64,000 nt of DNA from Rhodothermales bacterium (lineage in GTDB: Bacteria; Bacteroidota; Rhodothermia; Rhodothermales; DATKEJ01), in the NCBI GenBank assembly GCA_965250215.1, contig CBDFNN010000004.1, positions 1,266,734 through 1,330,733 of the forward strand. Direction: 5' to 3'. Position 1 is the stretch's first letter, and each line of letters starts with the position of its first letter. Below, one piece after another: positions 5,141 through 55,946 of the stretch. Both the position numbers and the translations under genes were made by a program. The notes beneath the pieces were generated by a model. That model was not told the DNA's origin, searched no databases, and was given only the letters and a program-made list of their open reading frames with translations.

Positions 5141-5210
5141 AAAACTCAAAACTCAAAACTCAAAACTCAAAACTCAAAACTCAAAACTCAAAACTCAAAA
5201 CTCAAAACTC
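5141..5210 (+). repeat. Perfect heptanucleotide tandem array (AAAACTC)x10
   Basis: Ten uninterrupted copies counted base by base from 5141 to 5210. The array ends 38 nt upstream of the ATG at 5249. Confidence 0.98.
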
Positions 5211-5248
5211 AATCTCCTATATTGACGCCACAACCAATCTCAAACAAA

Positions 5249-5725
5249 ATGCGTCAGCTAATTTCCAGCTTACTCCTTGTCGTTCTTATTCCACTCCTTG
5301 GCTTTGCTCAAGAATCAGAACTCGATGCTTATTGGGCGGAAGGATCCCGAACAGTAGGGGAAGGCGATTTCGACGGCTATGCGGCAACCTACCATCCAGA
5401 TGCCGTCTTGGTAAATGCTTTGAATGGCAAATCATATCCGATTGCCACGGCACTCTCGGGCTGGAAGCAAGGTTTTGATGACGTCGTTTCCGGGAAAATG
5501 AAGGCTGGTGTTACCTTTCGATTTTCGCAGAGATTGAACGACGAGACAACAGCCCACGACACCGGCATTTTCCGATACTGGTTTGCCATGGGTGAAGATG
5601 AGCCAAGCGTTTCCCTTGTTCACTTCGAAGGCTTGCTTGTCAAAGTGGATGGAGAATGGAAGATGGTTATGGAGTATCAGAAATCCAGAGCAAGTGAGGT
5701 GGAGTGGGAGGCTTTGGGAGAATAG
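5249..5725 (+). CDS. Secreted NTF2-fold (SnoaL/DUF4440-like) protein
   Basis: The track ORF starts at TTG 5222. I prefer ATG 5249, which gives the signal peptide MRQLISSLLLVVLIPLLGFAQ. The motif GDFDGYAATYHPDAVLV and the ~150-aa size fit SnoaL/DUF4440-like proteins. Confidence 0.6.
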   Translation: MRQLISSLLLVVLIPLLGFAQESELDAYWAEGSRTVGEGDFDGYAATYHPDAVLVNALNGKSYPIATALSGWKQGFDDVVSGKMKAGVTFRFSQRLNDETTAHDTGIFRYWFAMGEDEPSVSLVHFEGLLVKVDGEWKMVMEYQKSRASEVEWEALGE

Positions 5726-5737
5726 ATTTCCGGAACA

Positions 5738-6877
5738 TCAGATTGTCAGATTGTCAGATATCGCCAGAGCTCCTACCAAGGGATTTGCAGCGATAGGAGG
5801 TGATGTTTTCGATTTTAACCCAAATAGAGGTCTTAGGAATCCTAGTCTGCGGATCACAAACTCGTAGCTAAGAAAACAACCCAGGCCTGTGAGTAGAACG
5901 ACAAGACCGAACTTGATCCATTGGGGCATTTCCAGATCGAAAAAGAGATAGGATCCTAGATAGAGGAATGCCATGTGGATTATATAGACCGGATATGCCG
6001 CCTGGCTAAGATAACTAAGTACTCTGCTCGGTCTATTGAGGTAGGAATAGCCGAGGCCAAATACACCGAAAATCCAAAGACAGGACTCGATCGACAGCAA
6101 GTAATTTTCTGGCTTTAGATCGAAATAGACGAGCCGCGTTAGGTAGAGCGTGAAGGCGCAAGCAATGAGGCCCCATTTCCATTTCTTTACCGTGTCGAAG
6201 AACGCGACTCCACTCCACACACACGAAAACCCCACAAAGAATGCAATCATTCCGATCCAAAAACCGTGCAGGGTCATCGCGTAGATTTCGAAGCTATCGG
6301 GATTAACTAATATCGATTCCACAACGAAGGGAAGAATGATTGCCATCAATCCCAGTGGAGTTCCGAGTAATCTCTTGAGTCCTCGATTAATTGCGCCACT
6401 CTTGTTCTTCTTGAGATAAAAGAACAGAGGCGACAACACCACGACGTAGATAAATATATTCCCAAGAAACCAGAGATGAGCTGGATTAAGCACGAAGGTG
6501 ATATCCTGACTATAATATTTCTGCCATAGAAAAACGTGGATCGGTACAATGGCTATCGTCCCAAAAATAAACGGCAGCAGGATTCGCCTTGATCGCTCCA
6601 TGATCAGTTTCTTGAAATCTCGTCTCTCTATGGCAAAACTTACTCCCATTCCCGATACAAAAAAGAGCAGAGGTATCCTCCAGACGTTTAACATGCTCAT
6701 TGGTATCCAGATCGACTCCAAGGAGTCGCCGTTTTGAATGAAGCCAATGAACACACCCCAAGGTTGAAATCCGATCGAAATGTGATAGATAAGAAGAAGG
6801 CCGATTGCGATGACTCGTAGCCAATCGATGTCGTGTCTTCGTTGAGATATCTGCATTTGAGCATTCACTTTTGACAT
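5738..6877 (-). CDS. Acyltransferase family 3 (OpgC/OafA-like) integral membrane protein
   Basis: The motif RRHDIDWLRVIAIGLLLIYH is followed by about 10 hydrophobic segments. The track ORF extends to 6985, but ATG 6877 or 6856 fits the family N-terminus better. The start is uncertain. Confidence 0.75.
   Translation of the reverse strand: MSKVNAQMQISQRRHDIDWLRVIAIGLLLIYHISIGFQPWGVFIGFIQNGDSLESIWIPMSMLNVWRIPLLFFVSGMGVSFAIERRDFKKLIMERSRRILLPFIFGTIAIVPIHVFLWQKYYSQDITFVLNPAHLWFLGNIFIYVVVLSPLFFYLKKNKSGAINRGLKRLLGTPLGLMAIILPFVVESILVNPDSFEIYAMTLHGFWIGMIAFFVGFSCVWSGVAFFDTVKKWKWGLIACAFTLYLTRLVYFDLKPENYLLSIESCLWIFGVFGLGYSYLNRPSRVLSYLSQAAYPVYIIHMAFLYLGSYLFFDLEMPQWIKFGLVVLLTGLGCFLSYEFVIRRLGFLRPLFGLKSKTSPPIAANPLVGALAISDNLTI
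5739..5760 (+). repeat. Octanucleotide array CAGATTGT CAGATTGT CAGATA
   Basis: 2.75 copies lying between the convergent stops at 5725 and 5738. The last codons of the minus-strand acyltransferase ORF (ISDNLTI*) are read from this array. Confidence 0.85.
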
Positions 6878-6997
6878 TCCTATTCTGATAAATTGAGTCT
6901 TCTCATCTGTCAAGGAGGCGGACACCTGGGATTCTCCAATAGGAGAATTCAACTGAAGGTGCGCCTCGATTCTATAGAGCCTCAATGAGACTCTACT

Positions 6998-12608: not shown

Positions 12609-12644
12609 GAACATCAGATTGTCGGAACACGGCAAACGGAACAC
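12609..12644 (+). repeat. Composite micro-repeat: GAACATCAGATTGTC followed by GGAACAC GGCAAAC GGAACAC
   Basis: 12609-12623 is identical to 5733-5747. 12623-12644 (22 nt) is identical to 49950-49971. The repeat ends 6 nt from the stop of the minus-strand DUF1501 gene. Confidence 0.9.
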
Positions 12645-12650: not shown

Positions 12651-14105
12651 TTACGCCAATATCCCCTTGATCACTTCTCCATGCACGTCCGTCAATCGCA
12701 TCCGCCGACCTTGTGCCTTGAAGGTCATCCGTTCATGATCGACGCCCATCAGATGTAGTAGCGTCGCTTGGAAGTCATAAACGTGAACCGGGTTCTCAGC
12801 GATGTTGTAACCAAAGTCATCTGTCCGTCCATAGGTGAATCCGTTTTTCACTCCTGCACCGGCCATGAAAATAGTGTAGCACTTAGGATGGTGATCCCGA
12901 CCGTAGTTCGTAGCTGTCAGCTTACCTTGCGAGTAGTTTGTCCGGCCAAATTCTCCGCCCCAAATCACGAGAGTGTCCTCCAGAAGACCTCGCTGTTTCA
13001 AGTCCTTGATCAGAGCTGCAGTGGGCTGATCAGTGTCCGTTGTCAACTTTTGAATTTCACTCGGTAGATTTCCATGCTGGTCCCAGCCTTGATGATAGAG
13101 CTGTATGAATTTGACATCTTTTTCGGCTAGTCTTCTGGCGAGAAGACAGTTGGCAGCGAAAGTACCAGGCTTCTTGCTCTCTGGACCATACATTTCATAG
13201 ACGCTATCTGGTTCTTTCGATACATCCATGATTTCTGGCACCGAGGTCTGCATGCGATAAGCCATTTCATATTGAGCAATACGCGATGTGATCTCCGGAT
13301 CCATTACACGTTCATGCTGCTCCTCATGCATCTTGCGAAGTGTATCTAACATCTTTCTGCGACTCGACTTGTTCATTCCATGAGGATCGTTCAAAAATAG
13401 AACGGGGTCTAAGCCGGATCGGAACTGAACGCCCTGATGCTGAGAAGGGAGGAAGCCCGTTCCCCACAGTCTCGAGTAAAGAGGTTGATCTCCGTTGTTG
13501 CTACGCGACAACAGGACTATAAACGAAGGAAGGTTGTTGTTGTCAGTTCCAAGTCCGTAGGAAATCCACGAACCAATCGAAGGTCTGCCGGCCTCTTGTC
13601 GTCCCGTCTGGATAAAAGTCACAGCGGGGTCATGGTTAATGGCCTCCGTGTGCATGGTCTTGATGAAACAAAGGTCATCAGCAACTCCAGCGATGTTCGG
13701 CATCAATGAGCTGACGGTTGCACCGGAATTTCCATGCTTGGCGAAATCAAATGCCGATCCAGCGAGTGGAAAAGATTTCTGATGCGAAGTCATGCCGGTC
13801 AGGCGTTGTCCCTGTCGGATCGACTCAGGCAACTCTTCTCCGTTCATCTCTCGGAGAAGGGGTTTGTGATCGAATAAATCGAGTTGAGACGGGGCACCAC
13901 TTTGGAAAAGATAGATGACGCGTTTGACCCTTGGATTGAGATGTAAAGATCCAAGAGCCCCGTTGACTTTCAAGTCTGGCCCTTTCCCCAATAGGTCAAG
14001 AGGGTTCATCATTGAGGCCAAGGCCATGGTTCCGATGCCCTTGCTCGCTTGGGAGAGAAAGTAGCGTCGGCTAAAATTAAACTTAAGGTCGTCTAGCTCT
14101 TTCAT
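12651..14105 (-). CDS. DUF1501 family (sulfatase-fold) protein with a Tat signal
   Basis: 484 aa. Twin-arginine signal FSRRYFLSQASKGIGTMALA. Family signatures HDPAV, WGGEFGRT and YGRDHH. ATGA start/stop overlap with the upstream gene. Confidence 0.9.
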   Translation of the reverse strand: MKELDDLKFNFSRRYFLSQASKGIGTMALASMMNPLDLLGKGPDLKVNGALGSLHLNPRVKRVIYLFQSGAPSQLDLFDHKPLLREMNGEELPESIRQGQRLTGMTSHQKSFPLAGSAFDFAKHGNSGATVSSLMPNIAGVADDLCFIKTMHTEAINHDPAVTFIQTGRQEAGRPSIGSWISYGLGTDNNNLPSFIVLLSRSNNGDQPLYSRLWGTGFLPSQHQGVQFRSGLDPVLFLNDPHGMNKSSRRKMLDTLRKMHEEQHERVMDPEITSRIAQYEMAYRMQTSVPEIMDVSKEPDSVYEMYGPESKKPGTFAANCLLARRLAEKDVKFIQLYHQGWDQHGNLPSEIQKLTTDTDQPTAALIKDLKQRGLLEDTLVIWGGEFGRTNYSQGKLTATNYGRDHHPKCYTIFMAGAGVKNGFTYGRTDDFGYNIAENPVHVYDFQATLLHLMGVDHERMTFKAQGRRMRLTDVHGEVIKGILA

Positions 14106-23857: not shown

Positions 23858-23988
23858 AGGTAAGGAGGTTTATGAATCAATAATAGCCCATTTAGGCCAG
23901 TATTTGAAACGATGGCCATTCTGTGTGGATTGGCGATGGTGGATCCCTCGGATCCTTCGCATCGCGGGATGACTAGATCGCGACTAAT

Positions 23989-24016
23989 GACCAAGGACCA
24001 CGGACCAAAGACCAAC
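23989..24016 (+). repeat. Degenerate heptamer array GACCAAG GACCACG GACCAAA GACCAAC
   Basis: Four in-phase GACCANN units, ending 71 nt upstream of ATG 24088. The A/C-rich strand is the sense strand of that gene. Confidence 0.8.
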
Positions 24017-24087
24017 AAGCATTTGTCCTTTTTCTCAAAGCTCTGTCGTGATTAGTGTGTAGGCTACTCACTTTACAACGATCGACC

Positions 24088-35081: not shown

Positions 35082-35105
35082 CCGTCGATCCGTGATTCCG
35101 TGATT
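35082..35105 (+). repeat. Octamer array CCGTCGAT CCGTGATT CCGTGATT
   Basis: Three in-phase units in the 321-nt spacer upstream of the subunit-3 gene. Confidence 0.75.
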
Positions 35106-35145
35106 TTTATTCGCAAAAAGTACTGCATGAATATAGATGTTGTTT

Positions 35146-35225: not shown

Positions 35226-35275
35226 GACATCTGTATTTATCTCTGCTTACATTCGATAAAGCAAATCAGGGAATC

Positions 35276-35833
35276 ATGGAAAGAAGAAAAGCACTTGAGA
35301 GAATAGGATTACTAACCGGAGCCAGTTTATCAGCCCCCGTCTTAGCTGCAGCACTAGGTGGATGCAAAGCACCAGTCGCCAGTTACATTCCAGTAAATTT
35401 TGATGCCGACCTATTCCGGGCCCTCGGAATAATCTCGGACATAATCATTCCAGAGACCGACACGCCGGGAGCCAAGGAAGCTGGCGTCGACCAATTTATA
35501 GATCTCGCATTGTCTAGTGCCTTCGAGGAAAAAGACAAAGACCTTTTCATCGGTGGCATGAATCAGATGAACAATGATTCCCTGGGTGCATACGAACTGC
35601 CATTTGCAGATCTCGATTTAGAGAGGCAGACTCAAATTGTAACTGCCATGGATCAAAAGGCGTTTGAGGATATCGAGGCGGGTGTCCGTCCAAGACCCTT
35701 TTTCACCACGCTCAAACAAATAGTCCTCACCGGATATTACACGTCAGAAATTGGAGCGACACAGGAATTGAGATGGATCGTGGCGCCCGGTCGTTACGAT
35801 GGAGCTGCCGAGATGGGAAGAACTTGGGCTTAA
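35276..35833 (+). CDS. Gluconate 2-dehydrogenase subunit-3-family small subunit with a Tat signal
   Basis: 185 aa. Twin-arginine signal MERRKALERIGLLTGASLSAPVLAAALGGC. IIPETDTPGAKEAGV and LTGYYTSEIG are typical of the family. Confidence 0.85.
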   Translation: MERRKALERIGLLTGASLSAPVLAAALGGCKAPVASYIPVNFDADLFRALGIISDIIIPETDTPGAKEAGVDQFIDLALSSAFEEKDKDLFIGGMNQMNNDSLGAYELPFADLDLERQTQIVTAMDQKAFEDIEAGVRPRPFFTTLKQIVLTGYYTSEIGATQELRWIVAPGRYDGAAEMGRTWA

Positions 35834-35920
35834 GAAGCTCAGCTAGCTGAGCTGTGATGAGTGGGGGTTTTTGGGTGATGAGTCTCGCCCCGTACTTCAT
35901 TCACTTTCAAGAGCAAGCCC

Positions 35921-35940
35921 AAAACACAAAACACAAAACT
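35921..35940 (+). repeat. Heptamer array AAAACAC AAAACAC AAAACT
   Basis: About 2.9 units ending 7 nt upstream of ATG 35948. Confidence 0.8.
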
Positions 35941-39753: not shown

Positions 39754-42345
39754 ATGAAATTTCTACAAGGTCTATACATTGTAGCTACACTCATCTTTTG
39801 TGTGACACTACCAAGCCAGATTCAGGCGCAGACCGATATCTCAGGTTCATGGTCAAATATTACTGCCTACGGAACGGGACAAAACGATGTCTACTGTCAA
39901 GGGCTCTACAATAATGATCAAGAAATTCGCTACGGTGCGGACAACTACAACAGTGGTTACTGGGATTCAATGTGTTACTACACAAATAAGCCTTCTGGTC
40001 AGAGTGGGCTTGGATTCTTCGGTACTCAAGGGCTGACTTTTAGCTGCCAAGATGAGTCTCAGGCAAAAGTGCTCTATAACTTGGGCGAGTTCAAGCACTT
40101 CAACGAATCTGTCTATATCAGGAATTTTGGCCATCCGGTTTTTGACGAAAGTCTTGGTGGAGGTCAACTAAGCATTTCGCTTTCCGGCGATCTAAGCGCA
40201 ACATACTCTTTCGATGTGGATTTCGAAGAGACACCAAATGATCCTAATGGTTATCCTCAAGGAAATTACCAAACCCTTGGTTGCCCATACGGCACATTCA
40301 ATAACAAATGTAACGACAGAGTCAGCATCGAGAACGTTGTTGATCCGGGCAACGCGGTCATTATCAATGGCCAACAATGCCAGATCGTTATAGAAGGCTT
40401 CGGTGACTGCGCAACATCTGTAGAGCAGGATCCAGTGGAGTTCGTCACAACGGAGGGAAGTATCAACTCCAGCTGTGTTTGGGCCAGCATGTCTCCTCCT
40501 CCTGCCGTTTATGGCGCAATAGGAGATTACGTGTGGGGTGACGTAGACGCTGACGGTATTCAGGACGACGAAGAGAGTGGCCTTGATAATATTAGAGTGG
40601 AGGTCTATGAGTCTGTTGACAACGCTCCTTTTGTGTACAGGGAGTTCACGACCACCAATGCCGCTGGATATTACGATTTTGCAAATCTAGAGTCTGAGCG
40701 TGCCTATAAAATATACATCGATCCAGGTACTCTCGCTCCTGGTGAGATCACTGCAAGGAAGCAAGGAAATAAGCGAAGCAAAGACAGCAATGCCTATGCA
40801 AGTGGCTTCACGAACAAAGTGACTATTCAGCCAAATCAGTTTAAAACCAACATCGATATTGGTATCGTTCCCAACGCACAAGTTGGCTCCTTGCAAGGAT
40901 TAGCATGGATTGACCGAAGTGGCGACGGAACTTTAGAGAGTCCCGCTGAGCAAGCCGCTCCGGTTGCCGGCGCAACAATTAGTCTTTTTGAAGATCACAA
41001 TGGCGATGGAATTGGTGACGGTGCCTCGGTTCAAACGGCAATTACATCGGGTGACGGAGAATACTCTTTCCCTGGCTTGAATCCGTCGATAAATTATGTT
41101 GTTGGTATTTCAAACATACCCAACACATTACCCGGAACAGTCGCGGCCTGGAATGCTGGATCGGATGATACCATCGATAGTGATTTCGACCCGGCTACAT
41201 TAACAACCGGATCTCTTAATATTGAGCCAGAAGCCATACTCGATAATGTAGACGTTGGAGTCAATGCGGGTGGGATTGTCATCATTATCCATGACGGTGG
41301 AGAACTTCCAGGTGGATACGATCCAAATGGCGAAGAGCCTGAGCATGCTACGAACGACTATCTCTTTATTGGTGCGGCCATTGGCGGTAATGTAAACGCA
41401 AGTGAGAAGACGAAGAGCTTTGATAGAAGTGAACTTTCTCGAGTAGCTCTGGACGATGGTATCGAAGGTCCTAGCTTTGCTCCTGATGAGCCAGTTATGG
41501 GCTTTGATTTCAATGTCACGATTACTTCAAACGCATGGGCAATGTTAAGCTGCTTTGTTGACTATGACATCAATGGTGTCTTTGAGGAGGATGAAAGAAC
41601 CGATGTTGCAATTATGGGAAGCAATGTCTACAGAGTGCCAATGGAATCAACAGAGGATGTTTCTGCAGGATCAACCTTCGGTCGCTGCCGATTGGCATAC
41701 GACAGTAGCGAAGTTGAATCACCAGGTGGACCAGCCAGTTCTGGTGAAGTCGAGGACTTCCCTTTCCAAATTGGAGCGAATCTTCCGGTTGAACTTCTCT
41801 CATTCGAAGGCGAGCTTGTCCAAGGACAAATTGTTCTTAATTGGGCAACTGGTTCTGAGGAGAACAACGCGGGATTCTACGTGGAGCGATCCATTAATGG
41901 TCTCGGATTCCAGAGAGTAGGATTCGTTGAAGGAAACGGAACGGTCAATACAGAATCAACTTATTCGATTGCACTATCAGAGTTGGATCCCGGTGTTCAC
42001 ACCTATCGATTGAAGCAGGTTGATCATGATGGTCGATTCGAGTATTCCCGAAGCATAGAGGTAAGCGTGGATCTTCCAACGAACCTTCATCTGTCGGATG
42101 CTTATCCAAACCCATTCAATCCACAGTCGACTATAAGATTCACTGTTAAGAATGAAACGGAAGTAACCATTGGACTATACGACCTATCTGGAAGACTTCG
42201 AGCTACTTTATTCGAAGGCATTCAAGAGGCTGGAACAAGCCGCGAAATTCAGATCGACGGAAGCGACTTGAGTAGTGGTACATACTTCGTTCAGTTGAGC
42301 TCACCGCTCGACGTAGTTCAGAAGACAATCACCATCGCAAAATAA
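39754..42345 (+). CDS. Large T9SS cargo protein, tandem paralogue 1: Cys-rich N-domain, SdrD-B/Cna-B-like repeats, GEVED-like motif, pre-CTD module, T9SS CTD
   Basis: 863 aa with a signal peptide. Eight Cys in the first ~240 aa are conserved with paralogue 2. GDYVWGDVDADGIQDDEE repeats, SGEVEDFPF, LPVELLSFEGELVQGQIVLNWATGSEENNAGF, AYPNPFNPQSTIRF...GTYFVQL. Confidence 0.85.
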   Translation: MKFLQGLYIVATLIFCVTLPSQIQAQTDISGSWSNITAYGTGQNDVYCQGLYNNDQEIRYGADNYNSGYWDSMCYYTNKPSGQSGLGFFGTQGLTFSCQDESQAKVLYNLGEFKHFNESVYIRNFGHPVFDESLGGGQLSISLSGDLSATYSFDVDFEETPNDPNGYPQGNYQTLGCPYGTFNNKCNDRVSIENVVDPGNAVIINGQQCQIVIEGFGDCATSVEQDPVEFVTTEGSINSSCVWASMSPPPAVYGAIGDYVWGDVDADGIQDDEESGLDNIRVEVYESVDNAPFVYREFTTTNAAGYYDFANLESERAYKIYIDPGTLAPGEITARKQGNKRSKDSNAYASGFTNKVTIQPNQFKTNIDIGIVPNAQVGSLQGLAWIDRSGDGTLESPAEQAAPVAGATISLFEDHNGDGIGDGASVQTAITSGDGEYSFPGLNPSINYVVGISNIPNTLPGTVAAWNAGSDDTIDSDFDPATLTTGSLNIEPEAILDNVDVGVNAGGIVIIIHDGGELPGGYDPNGEEPEHATNDYLFIGAAIGGNVNASEKTKSFDRSELSRVALDDGIEGPSFAPDEPVMGFDFNVTITSNAWAMLSCFVDYDINGVFEEDERTDVAIMGSNVYRVPMESTEDVSAGSTFGRCRLAYDSSEVESPGGPASSGEVEDFPFQIGANLPVELLSFEGELVQGQIVLNWATGSEENNAGFYVERSINGLGFQRVGFVEGNGTVNTESTYSIALSELDPGVHTYRLKQVDHDGRFEYSRSIEVSVDLPTNLHLSDAYPNPFNPQSTIRFTVKNETEVTIGLYDLSGRLRATLFEGIQEAGTSREIQIDGSDLSSGTYFVQLSSPLDVVQKTITIAK

Positions 42346-42395: not shown

Positions 42396-42430
42396 GAGGG
42401 TTGTCTCAGAAATGAGGCGACCCTCTTTTT
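42396..42430 (+). terminator. Rho-independent terminator after paralogue 1
   Basis: Stem GAGGGT (42396-42401) with ACCCTC (42420-42425), followed by TTTTT (42426-42430). It is preceded by a second small hairpin, AAAGATT-CGA-AATCTTT (42376-42392). Confidence 0.65.
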
Positions 42431-42705: not shown

Positions 42706-45294
42706 ATGAATATGAAATCTCACCTATATCTACTTCTTCTCCTGAGCTTTTCCCTCGCAACACCGCTTAGTGCTCAAATCGATGTCAGCGGAAGCTGGTC
42801 TAATATCGAAGCATACGGAAGCGGAGTTAGCAGTCCTTATTGTTCTGGCATTTTCAATGCCTCTCAAGAAATCAGATATGGTGCAAGCTACTACGACAAT
42901 GGCTACTGGGATTCGATGTGTTACTGGACTAACAAACCAGGCGGACAGAGTGGTCTTGGTTTCTATGGTAACTCGAATATCAATTTCGCCTGTCAGACAC
43001 CAGGTCAGACCAAAGAGCTATACAATCTCGGCACTTTTACTCACTACAATCAGCCGATTTACGTGCCCTATTCTACAGATGGCGTCAATAGTGAGAGTCT
43101 TTCTGGAGGATTACTAACGGTTTCACTCACTGGCGAATCTGATTCGGATTTCGATTTCTTTGTTGACTTTGAAGAGACGCCGAATAATCCGAATAACTAT
43201 CCGGTTGCGCGATGGGATACCTCGACATGTCCTTATGGAGAGAACAACGGATCATGCAACGACAGAATTAGTGTCGAAGACAGAATTGATCCAGGCAATG
43301 AGATTATTATTGATGGAGAGAGCTGCCAAGTCGTTCTCGAAGGCTTCGGCGACTGTAGTACAGGCGTTTCTTCGGACGTGGTAGAGTTTATCACAACGGA
43401 AGGTAGCACAAACTCAGCATGCCTCTGGGCAAGCATGACTACTCCCGAAGATCTGAATGGGACGGTTGGAGACTTCGTTTGGTCTGATTTGAACGCAGAC
43501 GGAATCCAGACGCCTAGTGAGCCCGGTATCACTGGCATCGTTTTGGACTTGTACGTGTCTGTTGACAATCAGTCGTACTCGTTTGCAGAGACCACGACAA
43601 CCGGCAGCAATGGGAAGTATTCCTTCGACAGTATCAATCCCGATCTCTGGTATAAGGTTTTTATAGATCCCGCCAATATTCCAAACGGCGGCGCAATCAC
43701 AGCCCGTAAGCAGGGAAGCAAATCTGGAAAAGACAGCAATGCCTATCAAACTGGGTTTACAAATAGGTTTTCGGTCAATGAAAGTAAATTCAAGAAATCA
43801 ATAGATATAGGTATCGTACCAATCTCCGTGATGGTCAGTCTAAGTGGACAAGCATGGATCGATCGTAGCGGAGATGGTACATTGGAGAGCGCCGCAGAGC
43901 AAGCCGCACCAGTTGACGGCGCCACCGTGAAACTATACAAGGACGAGAATGGCGATGGGGTAAAAGACGGTGGTGCACTTCAGACCACAACAACTCAAGG
44001 CGGTGGTCTGTACGACTTCTCCGGTCTAAATCCCTCTTTGAACTATGTCGTTGAGTTGACTGACATTCCTTCCGCGCTGCCAGGATTCGTAGCTTTAAAT
44101 GCGGGAAGCAATGATGCTATAGACAGCGATTTCGACCCCGCAACGGGATTTACAGCATCAATTAATCCTGAGCCATCAATTCCCGTTGTTGATGTCGATG
44201 CGGGACTTAACGCTGGTGGAATCGTCATCGTGATTTATGACAATGGTGATGCCCCTACCGTATACGACATAGGTGGCGAACCAGGCCATGTCCAGAACGA
44301 TCAATTGTTCATCGGAAGCATTTTGGGTGATGGGGTCAACAGCCCGGATAAATTCAGTCCTCGTTTCGATATGGCCACTCTTTCAGCAGTCGTGCCTTTA
44401 GACGATGGAATAAGTGGGCCTGCTGCTATTCCAGGCGGATCAGTAAGAGGATTTTCACTGGATGTCACAATCGTCTCGAATGCATGGGCTTCATTGTCCT
44501 GCTGGGTCGACTATGATCAGAACAATGCATTCGACGACGACGAAAAGCGAGATATTCTAATCACTGGCGCCAATGTCTATTCTGTGCCGATGATTACAAC
44601 AGAAGACATCGTCTTGGGTGACACCTATGCAAGATGCAGATTGGCCTATGATTCGAGTGAAACCACGGCACCTGGAGGGCTTGCGAGCTCCGGTGAGGTC
44701 GAGGACTTTCCAGTCTTCATAGGAGAAGACCTTCCTGTTGAATTATCATATTTTGAAGCAGATGCTCGAGATGGTCGCGTCGTTTTAAGCTGGGCAACGG
44801 CATCTGAGAGCAACAATGCCGGATTCTCAGTCCAGCATTCCACGAATGGCCGCGACTTTGACGAAATCGAATTTATTGAAGGAAATGGAACGACAAATAC
44901 AGAATCGAACTATTCGTCGAGCATTGACGGTCTAGATTCCGGAATTCACCTTTTCCGACTGAAGCAAGTCGACCACGATGGTCGCTTTGAATATTCGAGG
45001 ACGATAGAAGTAGAAATGGAAATACCTTCTCAAGTCCACTTGTCTAATGCCTATCCTAATCCATTCAATCCATCTACCACAATCCAATTCTCAGTCCATG
45101 AACGAAGCAATGTTGAGATCGGAATCTATGATTTAACGGGTCGGCTCAGACAGACTATCTTTAGTGGCATCCAAGAAGCTGGAACCGCAAGAGAGATCGC
45201 TATAGATGCATCAAAGCTCAGCAGCGGCACTTATTTGGTTCGTCTGAATGCTGAAGGTATTATTGCTCAAAAATCGATAACTCTGGCCAAATAA
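42706..45294 (+). CDS. Large T9SS cargo protein, tandem paralogue 2
   Basis: 862 aa. Collinear with 39754..42345 (about 60% identical by eye, about 70% in the first 60 mature residues). Same domain order and CTD (AYPNPFNPSTTIQF...GTYLVRL). Confidence 0.85.
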   Translation: MNMKSHLYLLLLLSFSLATPLSAQIDVSGSWSNIEAYGSGVSSPYCSGIFNASQEIRYGASYYDNGYWDSMCYWTNKPGGQSGLGFYGNSNINFACQTPGQTKELYNLGTFTHYNQPIYVPYSTDGVNSESLSGGLLTVSLTGESDSDFDFFVDFEETPNNPNNYPVARWDTSTCPYGENNGSCNDRISVEDRIDPGNEIIIDGESCQVVLEGFGDCSTGVSSDVVEFITTEGSTNSACLWASMTTPEDLNGTVGDFVWSDLNADGIQTPSEPGITGIVLDLYVSVDNQSYSFAETTTTGSNGKYSFDSINPDLWYKVFIDPANIPNGGAITARKQGSKSGKDSNAYQTGFTNRFSVNESKFKKSIDIGIVPISVMVSLSGQAWIDRSGDGTLESAAEQAAPVDGATVKLYKDENGDGVKDGGALQTTTTQGGGLYDFSGLNPSLNYVVELTDIPSALPGFVALNAGSNDAIDSDFDPATGFTASINPEPSIPVVDVDAGLNAGGIVIVIYDNGDAPTVYDIGGEPGHVQNDQLFIGSILGDGVNSPDKFSPRFDMATLSAVVPLDDGISGPAAIPGGSVRGFSLDVTIVSNAWASLSCWVDYDQNNAFDDDEKRDILITGANVYSVPMITTEDIVLGDTYARCRLAYDSSETTAPGGLASSGEVEDFPVFIGEDLPVELSYFEADARDGRVVLSWATASESNNAGFSVQHSTNGRDFDEIEFIEGNGTTNTESNYSSSIDGLDSGIHLFRLKQVDHDGRFEYSRTIEVEMEIPSQVHLSNAYPNPFNPSTTIQFSVHERSNVEIGIYDLTGRLRQTIFSGIQEAGTAREIAIDASKLSSGTYLVRLNAEGIIAQKSITLAK

Positions 45295-45319
45295 TCTGTT
45301 GTCATCAGAACACCTCACT

Positions 45320-45367
45320 CTGAAAATCTGATAATCTGATAATCTGAAGTTCTGAAAATCTGAATCG
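45320..45367 (+). repeat. Degenerate octamer array CTGAAAAT CTGATAAT CTGATAAT CTGAAGTT CTGAAAAT CTGAATCG
   Basis: Six CTGA-phased units between the stop (45292-45294) and the terminator. Confidence 0.9.
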
Positions 45368-45379: not shown

Positions 45380-45414
45380 GAAGGCCGTCCTAGTTAAGGC
45401 GGCCTTCTTTTTTT
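45380..45414 (+). terminator. Rho-independent terminator after paralogue 2
   Basis: Stem GAAGGCCG (45380-45387) with CGGCCTTC (45400-45407), followed by TTTTTTT (45408-45414). Confidence 0.8.
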
Positions 45415-46552: not shown

Positions 46553-46687
46553 TATATCTGGCTTTTCTACTGGGAGATGGTTGGAGTCCATCATCCTCTA
46601 GGGAGATCAGCTTAGCAGAAGGACTAGTCAAGGCCACATAAGCTGGGAAGTGGCGGCAAGTCCTCGTTCCCGTAACTCACAACTCTA

Positions 46688-49874: not shown

Positions 49875-49949
49875 GGCGGGTTTTGTCAAATCTCAACTTG
49901 ACGATGTAAATTAAAGGAGCATCTTCCCACAACCCAAAACCCACTCTTC

Positions 49950-49971
49950 CGGAACACGGCAAACGGAACAC
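49950..49971 (+). repeat. C GGAACAC GGCAAAC GGAACAC, second copy of the 22-nt micro-repeat
   Basis: Identical to 12623-12644. It ends 3 nt from the stop (49975-49977) of minus-strand galU and is preceded by ACCCAAA ACCCACT (49932-49945). Confidence 0.9.
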
Positions 49972-49974
49972 CTC

Positions 49975-50871
49975 CTATTCCATCACTTCCTTCAAATAGG
50001 CCATGACTCCGTCACGCATATCCTTCCGTCTGAGTGCATAATCTAAAAAGCACTTTACATACTCAACTCGATTCCCAATGTCATATCGATGTGCCTTCCA
50101 TTTCAAAGCAAAAGTTGGTATATCCGCGGCTTGCATATTCATAGCATCGGTCAGCTGGATTTCACCTCCGTGTCCTTCGCTGGTACGATCCAAATAGTCA
50201 AATATATCTGGTGTGAATATGTATCTACCGGCGATGGCCAGGTTAGTGGGCGCGTGCTCCGGACTTGGTTTTTCGATCAATCTGTTGAGCCGGTACAAAT
50301 CAGGGTAGGCAGAGTCTTCAACGCCATCGACGATGCCATATCGAGAGACCCATTCATGCGGGACTTCGTGCACAGCAACAACACTGGATTCTTTTTTGTC
50401 GTATGCGTCAATTAGATGTCGTAGCCCCGGAATGCTTTCACCTTCGGCATCTTGCTTTGAGCTATCAATAATGGTATCGCCAAGTAGAACGGCGAAGGGC
50501 TCATTCCCAACGTGCATTCGGGCATGGCGAATAGCGTCTCCAAGGCCGGCTTGTGTCTTCTGACGGATGTAGTGAATATTTGCTTGATCAGCAAGCTCTC
50601 TAATCTCAGCTACCATTTCACCCTTCCCGGCCTCATCCAAGAATGACTCAAGCTCTGGATTATAGTCGAAATGATTTTCTATCGACCTCTTGGTTCGTCC
50701 CGTTATTATTAATATGTCGTCTAGGCCACTTGCTATCGCCTCCTCGATGACATACTGAATTACAGGTTTGTCCACGATGGGTAACATTTCCTTTGGCATC
50801 GATTTAGTCGCTGGCAGAAATCGAGTGCCCATACCCGCGGCAGGAATGACGGCTTTTCTTATGATCGACAT
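49975..50871 (-). CDS. galU: UTP--glucose-1-phosphate uridylyltransferase
   Basis: 298 aa. KAVIPAAGMGTRFLPATKSMPKEMLPIVDKPVIQYVIEEA, GLGDAI and LLGDTII. Confidence 0.9.
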   Translation of the reverse strand: MSIIRKAVIPAAGMGTRFLPATKSMPKEMLPIVDKPVIQYVIEEAIASGLDDILIITGRTKRSIENHFDYNPELESFLDEAGKGEMVAEIRELADQANIHYIRQKTQAGLGDAIRHARMHVGNEPFAVLLGDTIIDSSKQDAEGESIPGLRHLIDAYDKKESSVVAVHEVPHEWVSRYGIVDGVEDSAYPDLYRLNRLIEKPSPEHAPTNLAIAGRYIFTPDIFDYLDRTSEGHGGEIQLTDAMNMQAADIPTFALKWKAHRYDIGNRVEYVKCFLDYALRRKDMRDGVMAYLKEVME

Positions 50872-52033: not shown

Positions 52034-52078
52034 CAAGATCAGCAAGATCAGCCACTCACTTAGACAAGCAAGGTCAGC
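52034..52078 (+). repeat. 9-mer repeat CAAGATCAG CAAGATCAG plus a degenerate CAAGGTCAG
   Basis: Two perfect tandem copies at 52034-52051. The third, related copy lies within 52068-52078. All sit in the spacer 3' of the GH20 gene. Confidence 0.7.
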
Positions 52079-52095
52079 TAGAAAAGCCAGATAAG

Positions 52096-53706
52096 CTATC
52101 TCTCATGCTTTCTGTATTTAACTCCGTCACGATCGAGTCGATCATAGTGCCTAGTCAAACGCTCCAGGAACGATTCATAATTCTTGAGATCGGGATTGGT
52201 CCAAGCATTTTCTGCAACAGCTGTCAATCGAGGATAGATCATATAGTCCAAGTAGTCCTGATTGTTGATGTATTCGGTCCAAACATTGGCTTGAGTTCCA
52301 AGGATGTGCTTGCTTTGCTTAGCGTTGAGGACTTCGGGCACGGGCTCGAAAGAGTAAACCGTTTCAAGAGCTAGAAAGCTATCGCCGATGGCGAGAGGCT
52401 CCGTCTCCTTGTCGCCTTGTCTATAGTCCAGATAAGCATGGGTCGTCGGTGTCATGATTACATCATGACCCTGCTGTGCAGCGGCTATACCCCCCTCTGT
52501 GCCTCTCCAAGACATAACCGTAGCTTCGGGTGCCAAGCCACCTTCAAGAATTTCATCCCAACCGATGAGGCTTCGTCCATGTGAGTTCAAAAATTTCTCC
52601 ATGCGTTTGATGAAGTAGCTCTGTAACTCGTTCTCATCTTTCAATCCCTCTCGCTTGATAACGGATTGAGCTAGTTCTGATTTTTCCCACACATCGTTCG
52701 GGGCTTCATCAGCACCCACGTGGATGTACTTCGATGGGAAGAGCTCCATGACCTCAAGAAGGACATTTTCGTAGAATTCGAATGTCTCTTCCGATGGGCA
52801 TACAACACCTGCTTCGTGGACGCCCCAGTTGTTTGAGACCTCGATCGGTTCATCCGTACAGCCAAGCCAAGGGTAAGCTGCCATGGCGGCTTGAGCGTGC
52901 CCAGGCATTTCGATCTCTGGTATGACAGTTATGTGTCGGCTTGCGGCATAACGGACCACTTCTCTCACATCATCATGTGCATAGTGGCCTTCGTAAGGAT
53001 TCCCGTCTTTTACATCGTGGCTAAAGGGCTTGACCAAAAGAGTTGTGGATTTACGCCTCGATGCCACATCTACTAGCTTTGGGTATTTCTTGATCTCGAT
53101 TCTCCATCCTTGGTCATCCGTCAAATGCCAATGAAATTTGTTCAGTTTGTGGGCGGCCATCAAGTCCAACTGACGCTTAATCTGACCGACTGAGAAATAG
53201 TGCCTCGATACATCTAGCATCATTCCTCTATACGGGAATCTCGGCTCATCAAAGATGTCGACAGCAGAAATAGTCTTAGCTCCATCCTGAGGCAATAGCT
53301 GGAGAAAAGTTTGAATGGCGTAGAATAGTCCGGCATCGCTATTTCCACGCAAGAGCACTTCATCGCTGCTTACAGATATCGAGTATCCTTCTGGACCTGT
53401 GTCTAATTTTGGATCAATATCTAGCTTTATCGAGCCCTCTCCATTTTGGTTGAGTTTCCAACCTGAAAGCGTTTCGATGCGCTGAAGTAGATAGTCACAA
53501 ACTCCGTCGTCTTTACAGGCGACGCCAGCGCCTTCCAAAGAGAAACTTCCCTTGGCCAATTGCACAGACTGGGGAAGGGGCACAAGGCCGAGTGAAGAAG
53601 AATCAATAGTCATTATTGGTGTATTCGAATTACTGGTACATGATTGACAAAAAGCCGAAAGCAACAATAGGATGAATATAGTTTTTGACTTTGAAATTAG
53701 ATTCAT
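52096..53706 (-). CDS. Beta-N-acetylhexosaminidase (GH20), secreted lipoprotein-like
   Basis: 536 aa. HWHLTDDQGWRIEIKKYPKL and HVGADE (catalytic D-E), with a signal/lipobox-like N-terminus. Confidence 0.9.
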   Translation of the reverse strand: MNLISKSKTIFILLLLSAFCQSCTSNSNTPIMTIDSSSLGLVPLPQSVQLAKGSFSLEGAGVACKDDGVCDYLLQRIETLSGWKLNQNGEGSIKLDIDPKLDTGPEGYSISVSSDEVLLRGNSDAGLFYAIQTFLQLLPQDGAKTISAVDIFDEPRFPYRGMMLDVSRHYFSVGQIKRQLDLMAAHKLNKFHWHLTDDQGWRIEIKKYPKLVDVASRRKSTTLLVKPFSHDVKDGNPYEGHYAHDDVREVVRYAASRHITVIPEIEMPGHAQAAMAAYPWLGCTDEPIEVSNNWGVHEAGVVCPSEETFEFYENVLLEVMELFPSKYIHVGADEAPNDVWEKSELAQSVIKREGLKDENELQSYFIKRMEKFLNSHGRSLIGWDEILEGGLAPEATVMSWRGTEGGIAAAQQGHDVIMTPTTHAYLDYRQGDKETEPLAIGDSFLALETVYSFEPVPEVLNAKQSKHILGTQANVWTEYINNQDYLDYMIYPRLTAVAENAWTNPDLKNYESFLERLTRHYDRLDRDGVKYRKHER

Positions 53707-53707: not shown

Positions 53708-55147
53708 TTATACCTGTCTGGTTTTCCATTTCCCCTTCTTAAAGAAATAATATCCGAATAATGCTAATAGAGTCTGTGCAACAGAGATTGCGACAAAAAC
53801 CGCCTCTGTTCCGTAGTTAAGCTCGATTGCCAAAAAATAGGCTAGAGGTATTTGTAGGACCCAAAATACAAATAGGTTGATCCATGTTGGAGTCGTTGTA
53901 TCTCCTGCACCATTGAATGCCTGAATGGTTACCATTCCCACAGCCCAGAAGGGAAAGGAGTAGGCAAGGATACGAAGACATTGAACGGAGTATCTTATGT
54001 CCTCAGGTTCATCAGTAAATATTCGAGTTAGTTGCTCGGGAAATAGCCAAAGAATTAAGCCAAGAAAGCTTAGGAGAATCGAGTTGATCCAAGCCGTCGT
54101 CCAGACGGTTTGTTTAGCTCGATCTGCCTTTCCAGCACCAAGATTTTGACCAACCAAGGTTGCAGCTGCATTGCCAATACCCCATGAAGGAAGGAGAACG
54201 AAGACAATTAATCGAACGGCGAGTGTGTAACCGGCCACTGCGTGCGAACCGAAATAAGCGATGATTCTGATAACACCGATCCAGCTCGCAGTCGAGATCA
54301 AGAACTGAAGCATACCGGGACCACCTACCCTTACGATGCCCTTTATTTTCTCTATGTCGGGGCGAAAGGGAATGCCTTTAATGTTGATCTGACCATTGAT
54401 ACCAAAGAGGATCTTTAGCTGATAGAGAACGCCGACCGACCTGCCGATCGTTGTCGCAAGTGCAGCACCTGCTACACCCATTCCTGCCCATGATCCGATG
54501 CCAAAAATTAATAAGGGGTCCAATAGCATATTGAGACCATTAGCAAGCCAAAGAGATTTCATGGCGAGTGAAGCATCTCCAGCACCTCGAAAAATCGCGT
54601 TGATTAGAAAGAGAAGGAATATGCTAGCATTACCTCCAAAAAGGATCGCGCAGTAACTTGCCCCAGTGTCGATGACAGACTGTTCGGCACCCATCAAGCC
54701 TAGTAACTCGGGTGCGTATATCCAACCGAGAATGGCAATAGGGGTGGAAAAGGCGATTCCGATAAAAATTAGTTGGATTGAGGTTCTTGATGCCTCCTCG
54801 GGGTCACCCTCACCAATCCTCCGTGCCACCATAGCCGTGCCGGCCATGCTGAGTCCTATGCAAAGGGCGAAAACGATGATGATGAGACTCGCTGTAAGCC
54901 CGACCGCAGCAACAGCCTCCGTGCTGTTGGGAAGTTTGGAAACGAAAAAGATGTCCACGACCTCGAGAAAAGATTGCATAAGCATCTCGAGAACCATAGG
55001 AACGGCCAAGTAGAAGATGGCTTTCTTAATAGATCCAGTGGTGTAGTCTCTTGGGCCACCTTTTATGGCGCTCAAAAAGGCTCTAGCACCTCGAGAAAAA
55101 ATATTCCGTTGCTGTTGCTCCATTCTGTGAATTTGGGTGAGCGCCAA
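53708..55147 (-). CDS. MATE-family efflux transporter
   Basis: 479 aa. 12 hydrophobic segments. Typical N-terminus KKAIFYLAVPMVLEMLMQSFLEVVDIFFVSKL. Confidence 0.85.
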   Translation of the reverse strand: MALTQIHRMEQQQRNIFSRGARAFLSAIKGGPRDYTTGSIKKAIFYLAVPMVLEMLMQSFLEVVDIFFVSKLPNSTEAVAAVGLTASLIIIVFALCIGLSMAGTAMVARRIGEGDPEEASRTSIQLIFIGIAFSTPIAILGWIYAPELLGLMGAEQSVIDTGASYCAILFGGNASIFLLFLINAIFRGAGDASLAMKSLWLANGLNMLLDPLLIFGIGSWAGMGVAGAALATTIGRSVGVLYQLKILFGINGQINIKGIPFRPDIEKIKGIVRVGGPGMLQFLISTASWIGVIRIIAYFGSHAVAGYTLAVRLIVFVLLPSWGIGNAAATLVGQNLGAGKADRAKQTVWTTAWINSILLSFLGLILWLFPEQLTRIFTDEPEDIRYSVQCLRILAYSFPFWAVGMVTIQAFNGAGDTTTPTWINLFVFWVLQIPLAYFLAIELNYGTEAVFVAISVAQTLLALFGYYFFKKGKWKTRQV

Positions 55148-55330
55148 GATAGGGAAAGTGCAGTCTCGGTGACGGTCCTAGGGGATAGCACTTAGGCTTG
55201 ACCCAAGTAAAATGTCGATTGGTGCCTGTTTTGAGGTATTGGGGGGTACTTGTTTAATCGAAGCGAGATACCTTTAGAAAAACAGGACCCTCTCGAGGGA
55301 CATTAAATAAAAAGACAAAATCAATCATCA

Positions 55331-55759
55331 ATGAAAACCTCAATTCGATCCTTCTATTTCCCGATTGTGCTGCTATTCGTCAGTTTCGTAGCCTCATGCG
55401 ATGTGAATCCCTTTGATCAAAGCCAAGTGGCTATCATCACAACCGCTGTTACGGATTCAATAGCAACTATATCGTGGACACCAGCTGGAGCTTATCGGAT
55501 AAGAATCTACGAGGGTTCCTACGATGGAGATGATGGATATAATGGAGTGGTGTGGTCGGCAACGGCGGAGGATTTTAGCAATGTCTTGGTTTCTCCTTAT
55601 GTCGCAGGCTCAGATCCAGGAATCGAAAGCGGAAATCCTGTATTACTTCCTGGACAGAACTACACGGTGACAGTCCGAAGACGTGATCCAAAAGGAACGG
55701 GAGACGGCTTTACCAACACATCCAAGGTGTATATTGGCGAGTTGGCTTTCATACCTTGA
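55331..55759 (+). CDS. Small lipoprotein of unknown function
   Basis: 142 aa. Signal/lipobox LLFVSFVASCDVN. Beta-rich sequence. No recognisable family. Confidence 0.55.
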   Translation: MKTSIRSFYFPIVLLFVSFVASCDVNPFDQSQVAIITTAVTDSIATISWTPAGAYRIRIYEGSYDGDDGYNGVVWSATAEDFSNVLVSPYVAGSDPGIESGNPVLLPGQNYTVTVRRRDPKGTGDGFTNTSKVYIGELAFIP

Positions 55760-55783
55760 GGAGGCTTGGCGATGCTAAGCCGG

Positions 55784-55839
55784 GAGGAGTGAGGAGTGAG
55801 GAGTGAGGAGTGAGGAGTGAGGAGTGAGGAGTGAGGAGT
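55784..55839 (+). repeat. Perfect heptanucleotide tandem array (GAGGAGT)x8
   Basis: Eight uninterrupted copies counted from 55784 to 55839, starting 25 nt after the stop at 55759 and lying upstream of pnuC. Confidence 0.98.
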
Positions 55840-55946
55840 TCAGGTTACTACTACCTCCTATTCGGCTGAAAAAAATTTGGAGCAAGGCCAAACCCAAAAC
55901 CCAAAACTCTTCTACCATTTCTCACAACGCAAAACAGCCTCGACCC

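Follow-up and report, generated by a model that had tools for sequence, protein, structure and literature searches.

What produces the short tandem arrays that occupy many of the longer spacers in this stretch of bacterial DNA, and why do they keep a fixed orientation relative to the neighboring genes? The stretch, referred to below as the window, comprises 64,000 nucleotides of contig CBDFNN010000004.1, has a G+C content of 47%, and carries approximately 45 genes in approximately 90% of its sequence (57.8 kb of coding DNA compared to 6.2 kb of intergenic DNA). A first-pass annotation had listed 14 arrays of 7- to 9-nt units and had read them as expandable leader modules before genes, with trailers as their counterpart behind genes. 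All 14 arrays were found at, or 1-2 nt from, the places listed, and three more were found at 5056-5082 (period 8), 23941-23963 (period 9) and 49922-49946 (period 7); the density is approximately 17 arrays per 64 kb. The check confirmed that they exist, are non-coding and have a polarity with respect to the genes. As to their origin, the balance of probability tips slightly, in our judgment, towards slippage-generated simple sequence repeats (SSRs) of the 5- to 11-nt class, whose orientation has been filtered by selection on mRNA.

The arrays exceed chance in intergenic DNA, most strongly at period 7. Tandem Repeats Finder (TRF) returned six period-7 arrays in the intergenic DNA compared to 0.17 in dinucleotide shuffles (maximum 1 in 100), and none in the coding DNA, where 1.07 were expected; the comparison with shuffled sequence that the first-pass annotation had proposed, run within the window, thus revealed an intergenic enrichment of period 7. 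In a lag spectrum (at least 12 matches in a 14-nt scanning window), intergenic DNA gave six matches at lag 7 compared to 0.03 expected, two at lag 8, two at lag 9, and none at lags 3-6 and 10-13, and coding sequence was at chance throughout. At a looser threshold of 10/14, the intergenic count at lag 7 was 11 compared to 1.15 expected, indicating that the degenerate arrays (12624, 31110, 33135, 49951 and the previously unlisted 49922) exceed chance as a class. Exact heptamer doublets occurred at 0.95 per kb of intergenic and 0.07 per kb of coding DNA, a 14-fold difference, and an array is present in 13 of the 27 spacers that are 100 nt or longer.

The tandem units of 5-11 nt thus exceed chance, reach up to 6.3, 8 and 10.6 copies, and are heptanucleotides more often than any other length. 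Coding sequence is free of period-7 arrays, with overlaps only at extreme ends of open reading frames (ORFs) at 5738 and 33262. Periods 7 and 8 shift the reading frame, which confines surviving arrays to non-coding DNA and to the outermost codons of ORFs. The earlier statement that all arrays but one lie outside coding sequence was incorrect, as there are two exceptions: the octamers at 5738-5759 are also coding (minus-strand ORF 5738-6985).

The arrays were also found closer to gene ends than random placement predicts, as had been claimed. Six of 15 lay within 8 nt of a coding sequence boundary, compared to 2.05 expected by random placement within their own spacers (P = 0.008), and four of these six sit at stop codons, which are unambiguous. 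When each array was assigned to the nearest gene boundary, the sense strand was A/C-rich in six of the seven arrays nearest to a start, whereas in the nine nearest to a stop it was G/T-rich in seven and A/C-rich in two (Fisher P = 0.04). For strongly skewed arrays the corresponding counts were 5:0 near starts and 0:3 near stops (P = 0.018); these P values are nominal, since the rule was drawn from the same data and the sample is small. The earlier observation that all six arrays up to 110 nt before a start are A/C-rich holds under nearest-boundary assignment and needs it, because the G/T-rich array 33135 and the G-rich array 55784 are also within 110 nt of a start (93 nt upstream of 33248 and 108 nt upstream of 55947, respectively). 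Among the G/U-rich trailers proposed at 3' ends, four cases were clear, two of them the same 22-mer, and the arrays at 5738, 26195 and 45319 were neutral or A-rich in the transcript.

The replication strand was rejected as the cause of this polarity. GC skew is positive over nearly the whole window, yet both array orientations occur on the plus strand; the rule follows gene orientation. Nine arrays were strongly skewed by our count; six of them are A/C-rich and three G/T-rich on the plus strand, and all nine fit the gene-relative rule. A similar direction of bias was seen in viral contigs from diverse hosts (three pattern scans, crude ORF calls, de-duplicated), in which start-adjacent CAAAACN arrays were found 13 times in sense and three times in antisense orientation, and stop-adjacent GAGGAGT arrays eight times in sense and twice in antisense. 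All that follows from these counts is that the window genome is not alone in the direction of its bias.

The same strand rule is known from other bacteria. Rehm et al. (2015) described G-rich heptamers, GGGAATC in Xanthomonas and GGGGA(C/T)T in Nostoc, of which approximately 90% are intergenic; their G-rich strand is in most cases the non-coding one when they precede an ORF and the coding one when they follow it, each within 0-50 bp and including, downstream, overlaps with stop codons (PMC4692102). The window arrays follow this rule, clearly in its upstream half (5/5 strongly skewed arrays) and more weakly in its downstream half (four clear, three neutral or contrary). As in Xanthomonas and Nostoc, no link to mobile elements or surface-protein genes was found in the window; unlike there, several unrelated unit families are present instead of one dominant unit. 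A G-quadruplex needs at least four runs of at least three G. GGG occurs in no unit of the window, and the most G-rich unit, GAGGAGT, has GG, so that the polarity common to the window and Xanthomonas and Nostoc cannot be a quadruplex effect.

A simple explanation of the 5' polarity is offered by the leaders themselves. A Shine-Dalgarno (SD)-like 4-mer precedes three of the 45 genes. The G content of leaders is 15% at positions -1 to -40 with or without arrays (15.4% when arrays are excluded) and reaches 22% by -81 to -120, and the A/C-rich arrays are predicted to be fully unpaired. Both SD-independent initiation and G-poor, unstructured leaders, on which the first-pass annotation had relied, were therefore borne out. 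Start-proximal arrays are more A/C-rich, being poor in T as well as in G, than this already G-poor background. In the 224 nt of the seven start-proximal arrays, ATG, GTG or TTG occurs once in sense and would occur 29 times if the arrays were flipped; in the 379 nt of the stop-proximal arrays, the counts are 28 in sense and four in antisense. Without an SD sequence, runs of GUG or UUG, or of an SD-like GGAG, would be expected to do harm if they preceded the true start, and this fits initiation in Flavobacterium johnsoniae, which is tuned by low mRNA structure and upstream A residues (PMC6847099). With SD-free initiation and G-poor leaders, only the G-poor, start-codon-free orientation would persist before starts. 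Such a passive filter explains the 5' polarity as well as the unstructured-leader picture does. The tie that had been drawn to initiation of the Bacteroidota type did not hold, because the polarity is also present in Xanthomonas, which uses SD sequences, and in Nostoc (PMC4692102), and the CAAAACN arrays of viral contigs are likewise sense-biased.

By their position, at least some of the arrays would have to be transcribed. Those at 31110 and 35920 are only 1 and 8 nt away from their starts, which leaves no room for a promoter downstream, and the array at 45319 lies between the stop at 45294 and a strong intrinsic terminator at 45380-45407. Four arrays (33135, 35920, 55784 and 55890) lie between co-directional genes that are 1-71 nt apart in relatives. 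The Bacteroidetes-type -7 promoter motif TAnnTTTG was not enriched in the window (39 occurrences compared to 32.6 expected) and was nearly missing from spacers, and scans of the window for sigma-70-type promoters and for terminators stayed at background level overall, two strong terminators excepted; at this background, the arrays are not placeable relative to promoters. Rfam and tRNA scans of the window gave zero matches.

Two comparisons bear on how the arrays arose. Tandem paralogues at 39754-42345 (paralogue A) and 42706-45294 (paralogue B) code for SdrD_B/GEVED proteins that are secreted and carry type IX sorting tails. Behind each gene lies a strong intrinsic terminator (42396-42425 and 45380-45407), indicating that canonical terminators are used in this organism. 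In the 3' untranslated region (UTR) of paralogue A there is a single CAATCTGG where paralogue B has six AATCTGAn units, and the homologous downstream terminator is kept in both. The octamer array at 45319 therefore appears to have grown from one unit that survives in the paralogue. The second comparison, made for orthologous spacers, covers the PnuC neighborhood on three environmental contigs, in which the order ORF142-PnuC-925aa-GlnRS is kept wholly or partly. The ORF142-PnuC spacer of the window has 187 nt and two arrays. In the three nearest relatives found (PnuC 60%-68% identical, synteny kept), the ORF-PnuC spacer has 1, 71 and at most 152 nt, respectively, and no tandem repeat. This indicates that the arrays are lineage-specific additions that lengthen spacers, on a scale set by relatives only 55%-68% identical in protein, the closest in the protein database. 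Similarly, Gramella and Aequorivita bear repeats, and in their relatives the spacers are shorter and repeat-free (PMC4679880).

The following course of events would account for these findings. A short unit already present in a spacer would be duplicated and then expanded by slippage. The arrays form a continuum from perfect to degenerate, in which perfect arrays of 6-10 copies would be recent and degenerate arrays would be older and decaying by point mutation. Orientation would then be filtered by selection on mRNA: an array before a start would persist only if its sequence were neither G-rich nor structured and introduced no false ATG, GTG or TTG, and the G/T-rich orientation would be tolerated solely after stop codons. 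An unstructured start region is probably a side effect of the A/C-rich leader arrays, which may also modulate expression. To judge from the sequences compared, the arrays are not conserved, dedicated modules. The idea of an expandable leader module is plausible, and unstructured 5' leaders are compatible with it; set against it are the array-free PnuC spacers of the relatives, a passive filter that suffices, and a weak 3' side. The functional reading given to the arrays in the first-pass annotation thus has partial support for the 5' arrays and weak support for the 3' ones; as a whole it is unproven.

Slippage has been proposed for such repeats before. In the survey of Mrazek, Guo and Shah (2007), as it is cited in PMC4679880 and PMC4692102, heptanucleotides were more abundant in most genomes than any other long-unit repeat and lay largely outside coding sequence; as their source, the authors proposed polymerase slippage. 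Compared to the long-unit SSRs (5-11 nt) of that survey, as described in the same citing papers, the window arrays are likewise head-to-tail, perfect or near-perfect, and by far commonest at period 7; they are non-coding, since the period is not a multiple of three, have no link to antigen genes, and belong to a mid-sized to large genome (4.5-Mb contig). They differ from what is quoted of that survey in a density that looks very high, with half of the spacers of at least 100 nt occupied, in the recurrence of a few unit families, and in a deep-branching lineage with type IX secretion signals, which is outside the taxa quoted as listed there. Intergenic heptamer repeats are a known, unexplained class, and the window is an unusually dense instance of it in a poorly sampled lineage.

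Four observations weigh against slippage followed by a passive filter. Local slippage alone does not explain recurrent unit families and exactly copied imperfect stretches. The background composition downstream of stops is unskewed, which leaves the G/T-rich bias of the stop-abutting arrays without a passive explanation. The excess of arrays within 8 nt of gene ends is not predicted by neutral placement. Finally, GACCAAN arrays in the viral contigs had no clear polarity (17:14); many of these are inside ORFs, and the longest-ORF calls begin on TTG codons within the inverted array.

The polarity and the closeness to starts and stops beyond random placement would also be expected of cis-acting RNA elements, an alternative that we regard as possible although distinctly unlikely. 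The A/C-rich leader arrays would be unstructured, start-codon-free landing pads or protein-binding arrays, and the G/U-rich stop-abutting arrays a second class. The binder could be a single-strand-binding protein, for example, ribosomal protein S1 or a cold-shock-type OB-fold protein, with one molecule per heptamer. Translation efficiency would be set in this way, with copy number as a tunable dial, and the G/U-rich arrays would act on termination or on mRNA 3' ends. The composition of the start-proximal arrays, A/C-rich beyond the leader background, is consistent with such elements, as are the initiation tuning of F. johnsoniae cited above and the limited repertoire of units, which are found at several loci in a fixed orientation relative to genes. 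Against them, the arrays are not kept in the nearest relatives at the one comparable spacer, the downstream genes have no common functional theme, and several arrays are located mid-spacer or in convergent spacers, where there is no leader.

Precedents for cis-acting heptamers point in both directions. MacGregor (2015) described TAACTGA direct repeats just before start codons in Beggiatoaceae, Cyanobacteria and five Bacteroidetes, and proposed S1, Csp or Csr as their readers; a translational role was proposed, not shown (PMC4679880). Heptamer-rich Bacteroidetes named in that paper include Flexibacter litoralis, Gramella forsetii and Aequorivita sublithincola. The window arrays resemble these repeats in being mostly intergenic heptamers in forward orientation a few nt before starts, with occasional sets right after stops, in having other heptamers in the same spacers, and in having close relatives with shorter, repeat-free spacers (PMC4679880). 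However, TAACTGA occurs in the window as four single copies and never in tandem, which places the arrays outside the TAACTGA class, and unlike TAACTGA, a unit with two stop codons, the leader arrays of the window are A/C-rich and free of stop codons. In Nostoc PCC 7120, (TTCAAAA)3 is located upstream of recF and (GAC(C/T)AAT)8 adjoins the recO start, and their deletion altered reporter responses (10.1101/2022.06.06.494920). The window units TCAAAAC and GACCAAN are one base from TCAAAAT (TTCAAAA) and GAC(C/T)AAT, respectively, and have the same orientation and start-abutting position. The effects in Nostoc were modest, however, and the role was called speculative by its authors (10.1101/2022.06.06.494920). 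By our estimate, a one-mismatch likeness between several families on each side is not improbable as a coincidence.

The first-pass annotation had compared the arrays to the STRR heptamers of cyanobacteria. Mazel et al. are said to have described these in 1990. The STRR units are CCCCAGT, TTGGTCA and CAACAGT. The window arrays share with cyanobacterial STRRs a small heptamer repertoire, repeated in tandem and dispersed over many intergenic sites, and the comparison stands as far as the two families one base from the Nostoc recF and recO heptamers, in the same orientation, are concerned. As membership it fails on both unit and host: in the window, GACCAAN alone resembles an STRR unit (6/7 to the complement of TTGGTCA), units of STRR1 and STRR3 are absent, and the gene content is non-cyanobacterial (type IX tails, DUF1501/PSCyt).

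The unit families and exact copies that local slippage leaves aside are the following. CAAAAC[T/A/C] was found at 5139, 35920, 55890 and 49922; GACCAAN at 23989, at 31110 on the minus strand, at 33262 and, inverted, at 33135; the octamer CAGATTnT at 5056, 5738, 12612 and, inverted, at 45319; GGAACAC/GGCAAAC at 12623 and 49950; and GA[G/C]GA[G/C]T at 26195 and 55784. The GACCAAN arrays have a variant second unit, [GC]ACCACG, in common and can be aligned beyond the repeat unit. The 22-mer CGGAACACGGCAAACGGAACAC is present at 12623-12644 and 49950-49971, 6 and 3 nt past the unrelated minus-strand stops of a DUF1501 protein gene and a nucleotidyl transferase gene, respectively, in the same orientation. 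The 15-mer TATCTGGCTTTTCTA is present in gene sense 2-3 nt past the stops of a xylose-isomerase-like gene (plus strand, 46555-46569) and of the GH20 gene 52096-53706 (minus strand, approximately 52080-52094). A 15-nt junction, GAACAT-CAGATTGTC (GGAACAT-CAGATTGT), is common to two convergent spacers (5733 and 12609), again with a constant orientation relative to the gene ending there. In total, five exact matches of at least 13 nt link different spacers, and by our estimate approximately 0.07 matches of at least 15 nt would be expected by chance. The 9- to 12-mers common to different spacers were at chance level, so that only the long exact matches are meaningful.

These exact copies indicate that sequence was copied from spacer to spacer or that particular sequences were selected. 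Copying, by very small dispersed mobile elements or by gene conversion, would seed the arrays, and slippage would only expand the seeds; an insertion preference beside stops would explain the stop-abutting copies. We rate this account as improbable. It draws on the identical 22-mers and 15-mers past unrelated stops, on the junction in the two convergent spacers, on the alignment of GACCAAN arrays beyond their unit, and on an unrelated dispersed element of approximately 86 nt, which shows that short sequences have been copied between spacers in the window. Very small dispersed mobile elements were reportedly found embedded in heptamer repeats of Nostoc by Elhai et al. in 2008. However, each sequence is present in only two or three copies per 64 kb, a number at which copying and selection are indistinguishable, and the picture would be no different under convergent selection for a binding site. 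Neither terminal repeats nor target duplications or hairpins were observed, the window has no transposase gene, and the 21-mer GGAACACGGCAAACGGAACAC, which is of low complexity, had no meaningful matches elsewhere: scans of a genome collection and of metagenomes returned three matches, all in unrelated organisms, one in CACGG-rich low-complexity sequence of a Bacillota genome and two at a single gammaproteobacterial locus.

In the latter, a sediment genome (L003 5944-6095 = L004 917-1060), the 21-mer makes up one arm of a near-perfect inverted repeat of 26 nt, which flanks approximately 100 nt upstream of a gene. This is probably a local feature unrelated to the window.

A broader picture, which we hold to be improbable, would join several of these ideas. 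In it, the arrays would make up two classes of single-stranded RNA elements throughout the genome, recognized by a sequence-tolerant cold-shock or S1 OB-fold protein that measures heptamers; A/C-rich arrays would load ribosomes or clear the way for them at SD-less starts, G/U-rich arrays at stop codons would influence termination, the release of ribosomes or the stability of 3' ends, copy number could be adjusted by evolution, and the seeds would be copied between spacers and shared or exchanged with cyanobacteria.

Contingency loci, in which a change of copy number in promoters or leaders would switch neighbors on or off (phase variation) as bet-hedging, are very improbable: perfect arrays of 6-10 copies are the type of tract that mutates fast by slippage, and intergenic repeats do drive phase variation in Haemophilus and Moraxella (reviewed in PMC4679880; intergenic repeats of Haemophilus are also the subject of PMC12721329), but the linked genes are housekeeping or metabolic (SnoaL-like, PnuC, GMC oxidoreductases, Nramp-like transporter, GH20), the type IX-secreted surface proteins of the window have no 5' arrays, many arrays are 3' of genes or in convergent spacers, long-unit repeats typify large-genome free-living bacteria rather than host-adapted pathogens (Mrazek 2007, as cited in PMC4679880), and phase variation was judged unlikely for the Xanthomonas and Nostoc heptamers by Rehm et al. 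(PMC4692102). REP/BIME, MITE and other palindromic dispersed elements were rejected, as the arrays are direct repeats, the A/C-rich ones are predicted to be unfolded, and neither inverted partners nor Rfam matches were found.

The individual arrays are described here by position. Three are perfect, (TCAAAAC)x10.6 at 5139-5212, (TGACGAC)x6.3 at 26195-26238 and (GAGGAGT)x8 at 55784-55839, and the remainder are short or degenerate, with lag-7 matches of 10/14 at 12624, 17/28 at 31110, 11/14 at 33135 and 14/21 at 33262. As RNA, the array sequences include (AAAACUC)10, (GAGGAGU)8 and GUGUUCCGUUUGCCGUGUUCC; long arrays that are unstructured, contain C and lack G are similar to Rho loading sites. Among the arrays at starts, (TCAAAAC)x10.6 is on the plus strand 36 nt before ATG 5249 of a secreted SnoaL-like protein, and its sense strand has neither a G nor a start codon. 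The same is true of (AAACCCA)x2.6 at 55890-55907 (plus strand), 39 nt before ATG 55947. The degenerate heptamers GACCAAG GACCACG GACCAAA GACCAA at 23989-24015 (plus strand) are A/C-rich in sense and lie 39-72 nt before a start at GTG 24055 or ATG 24088. A second degenerate set, with the sense sequence GAGACCA ATCACCA CGAACCA AGACCCA CAAACCA, is on the minus strand at 31110-31144, ends 1 nt before ATG 31108, and can be aligned with the arrays at 23989 and 33262. At 33262-33289 (plus strand), GACCAAT AACCAAA GACCAAC AACCCAA lies within the first codons of a GMC oxidoreductase gene (GTG 33248 or 33260), before the Rossmann motif. The array (CAAAACA)x2.9 at 35920-35939 (plus strand) is 8 nt before ATG 35948 and is probably intercistronic, because genes 35276-35833 and 35948-37663 resemble one operon.

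At stops, the octamers (CAATCTGA)x2.75 at 5738-5759 (minus strand) form the last seven codons and the TGA of ORF 5738-6985 and are located 13 nt past the stop of a convergent plus-strand gene. The composite element at 12609-12644 (minus strand) consists of one octamer unit, GAACATCAGATTGTC, which is also found at 5733, followed by GGAACAC GGCAAAC GGAACAC; it begins 6 nt past the stop of the minus-strand gene 12651-14105 and is G/U-rich in its transcript. The perfect array at 26195-26238 lies in a convergent spacer, is neutral in composition on both strands, and directly adjoins (0 nt) the TAG stop of the minus-strand gene 26239-27207. On the plus strand, TGGTTTT TGGTTCA TGGTTTA at 33135-33155 begins 2 nt past the stop at 33132 and is the complement of the GACCAAN/AACCAAA family. 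The octamers (TCTGAAAA / AATCTGAn)x5.8 at 45319-45364 (plus strand) are in a 3' UTR, where they begin 24 nt past the stop at 45294 and end 15 nt before the intrinsic terminator 45380-45407. The plus-strand 15-mer TATCTGGCTTTTCTA at 46555-46569 begins 2 nt past the stop at 46552. At 49922-49971 (minus strand), CACAACC CAAAACC CAC is followed by the 22-mer CGGAACACGGCAAACGGAACAC, identical to that at 12623-12644; this array is 3 nt past the stop of the minus-strand gene 49975-50871 and is G/U-rich in its transcript. The nonamers listed earlier at 52034 were found to be a piece of a degenerate GCTnnnCTn array (minus strand, 52034-52095) of approximately seven units in sense, including CTGATCTTG x2, which reaches and adjoins the stop codon of the minus-strand gene 52096-53706. 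The perfect (GAGGAGT)x8 is G-rich in sense on the plus strand, 24 nt past the stop at 55759 and 107 nt before ATG 55947 of PnuC.

Three arrays remain. The degenerate octamers (CGATTATC)x3.4 at 5056-5082 (plus strand), found by TRF, are in the divergent spacer 4997-5248 and belong to the CAGATTnT/CGATTnTC family; the nonamers (GGATCCCTC)x2.6 at 23941-23963 are in the divergent spacer 23858-24087 and have no strand assigned; and the octamers (ATTCCGTG)x3.4 at 35079-35105 (plus strand) are mid-spacer in 34955-35275. The complementary arrays 33135-33155 and 33262-33289 pair in the predicted minimum-energy fold (12 + 5 bp) and enclose the whole spacer and the start region; a structural role for them was rejected, as the fold was no better than that of shuffled sequence (z = -0.28).

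The (GAGGAGT)x8 array has consequences for gene annotation. The database PnuC protein (257 aa, P0001) begins at GTG 55824 inside the array, and its homologues have 219-223 aa and are aligned from ATG 55947, so that the GTG codons of the array appear to have misled the gene caller. Within (GAGGAGU)n RNA, an SD-like GGAG is followed after 6 nt by GUG and then by a five-codon mini-ORF (GUG AGG AGU GAG GAG UGA); these overlapping patterns are repeated in every reading frame. An ACCUCCU located 12 nt downstream of the array pairs with it in the predicted fold of 55784-55860.

The gene content of the window was that of the FCB group, as the first-pass annotation had held. Pfam matches included several proteins with the type IX secretion C-terminal sorting domain, a DUF1501/PSCyt/PSD1 pair, a TonB-dependent receptor with a CarboxypepD_reg domain, a GH20 hexosaminidase, GMC oxidoreductases with gluconate-2-dehydrogenase subunit 3, PnuC, and a GlnRS fused to a YqeY domain. 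The GlnRS (59646-61946), whose C-terminal domain is of the YqeY/GatB type, has closest homologues that are approximately 55% identical near full length and up to 63% identical on partial alignments, scattered over Chloroflexota (Caldilineae), Gemmatimonadota, Rhodothermales and Acidobacteriota. Such distant and taxonomically scattered homologues indicate a lineage without a close sequenced relative in the protein database, which by these protein comparisons is isolated and deep-branching. The four best relatives of PnuC (55947-56597) are environmental and 60%-68% identical. After these, the best named homologues are all from filamentous cyanobacteria (Microcoleus, Leptolyngbya and Tychonema, 52%-55%), a hint that genes may have been exchanged with the group in which heptamer repeats are best known; cyanobacterial best named matches are confined to PnuC.

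The intergenic element of approximately 86 nt was found at 29610-29695 and 35142-35225, both copies in plus orientation. It contains a 19/19-identical block, GAAATTGGCTGAGAAGAAT, and an 88%-identical block (GTTyTTCGAAGCACTTwTTTCC), has no Rfam match, and is flanked by genes in -/- orientation at the first copy and +/+ orientation at the second. It could be a shared operator or a small RNA in a sugar-oxidation cluster.

In cyanobacterial spacers, heptamer repeats have been known since 1990, surveys of such repeats in bacteria followed in 2007 and 2015, and their seven-base preference and strand rule are unexplained. The window adds a distant lineage, SD-free and with type IX secretion signals. 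Polarity in units that are unable to form G-quadruplexes removes the quadruplex explanation that was offered for Xanthomonas and Nostoc and suggests a simpler rule, in which only the start-codon-free, G-poor orientation is tolerated before starts. In practice, arrays of this kind can mislead gene callers, as in the case of PnuC. Several of the stop-abutting sequences are exact copies of one another; if G/U-rich arrays abutting stops and copied 15- to 22-mers were found throughout the genome, they would be a first clue to a 3'-end element not described before or to a copying mechanism of very small size.

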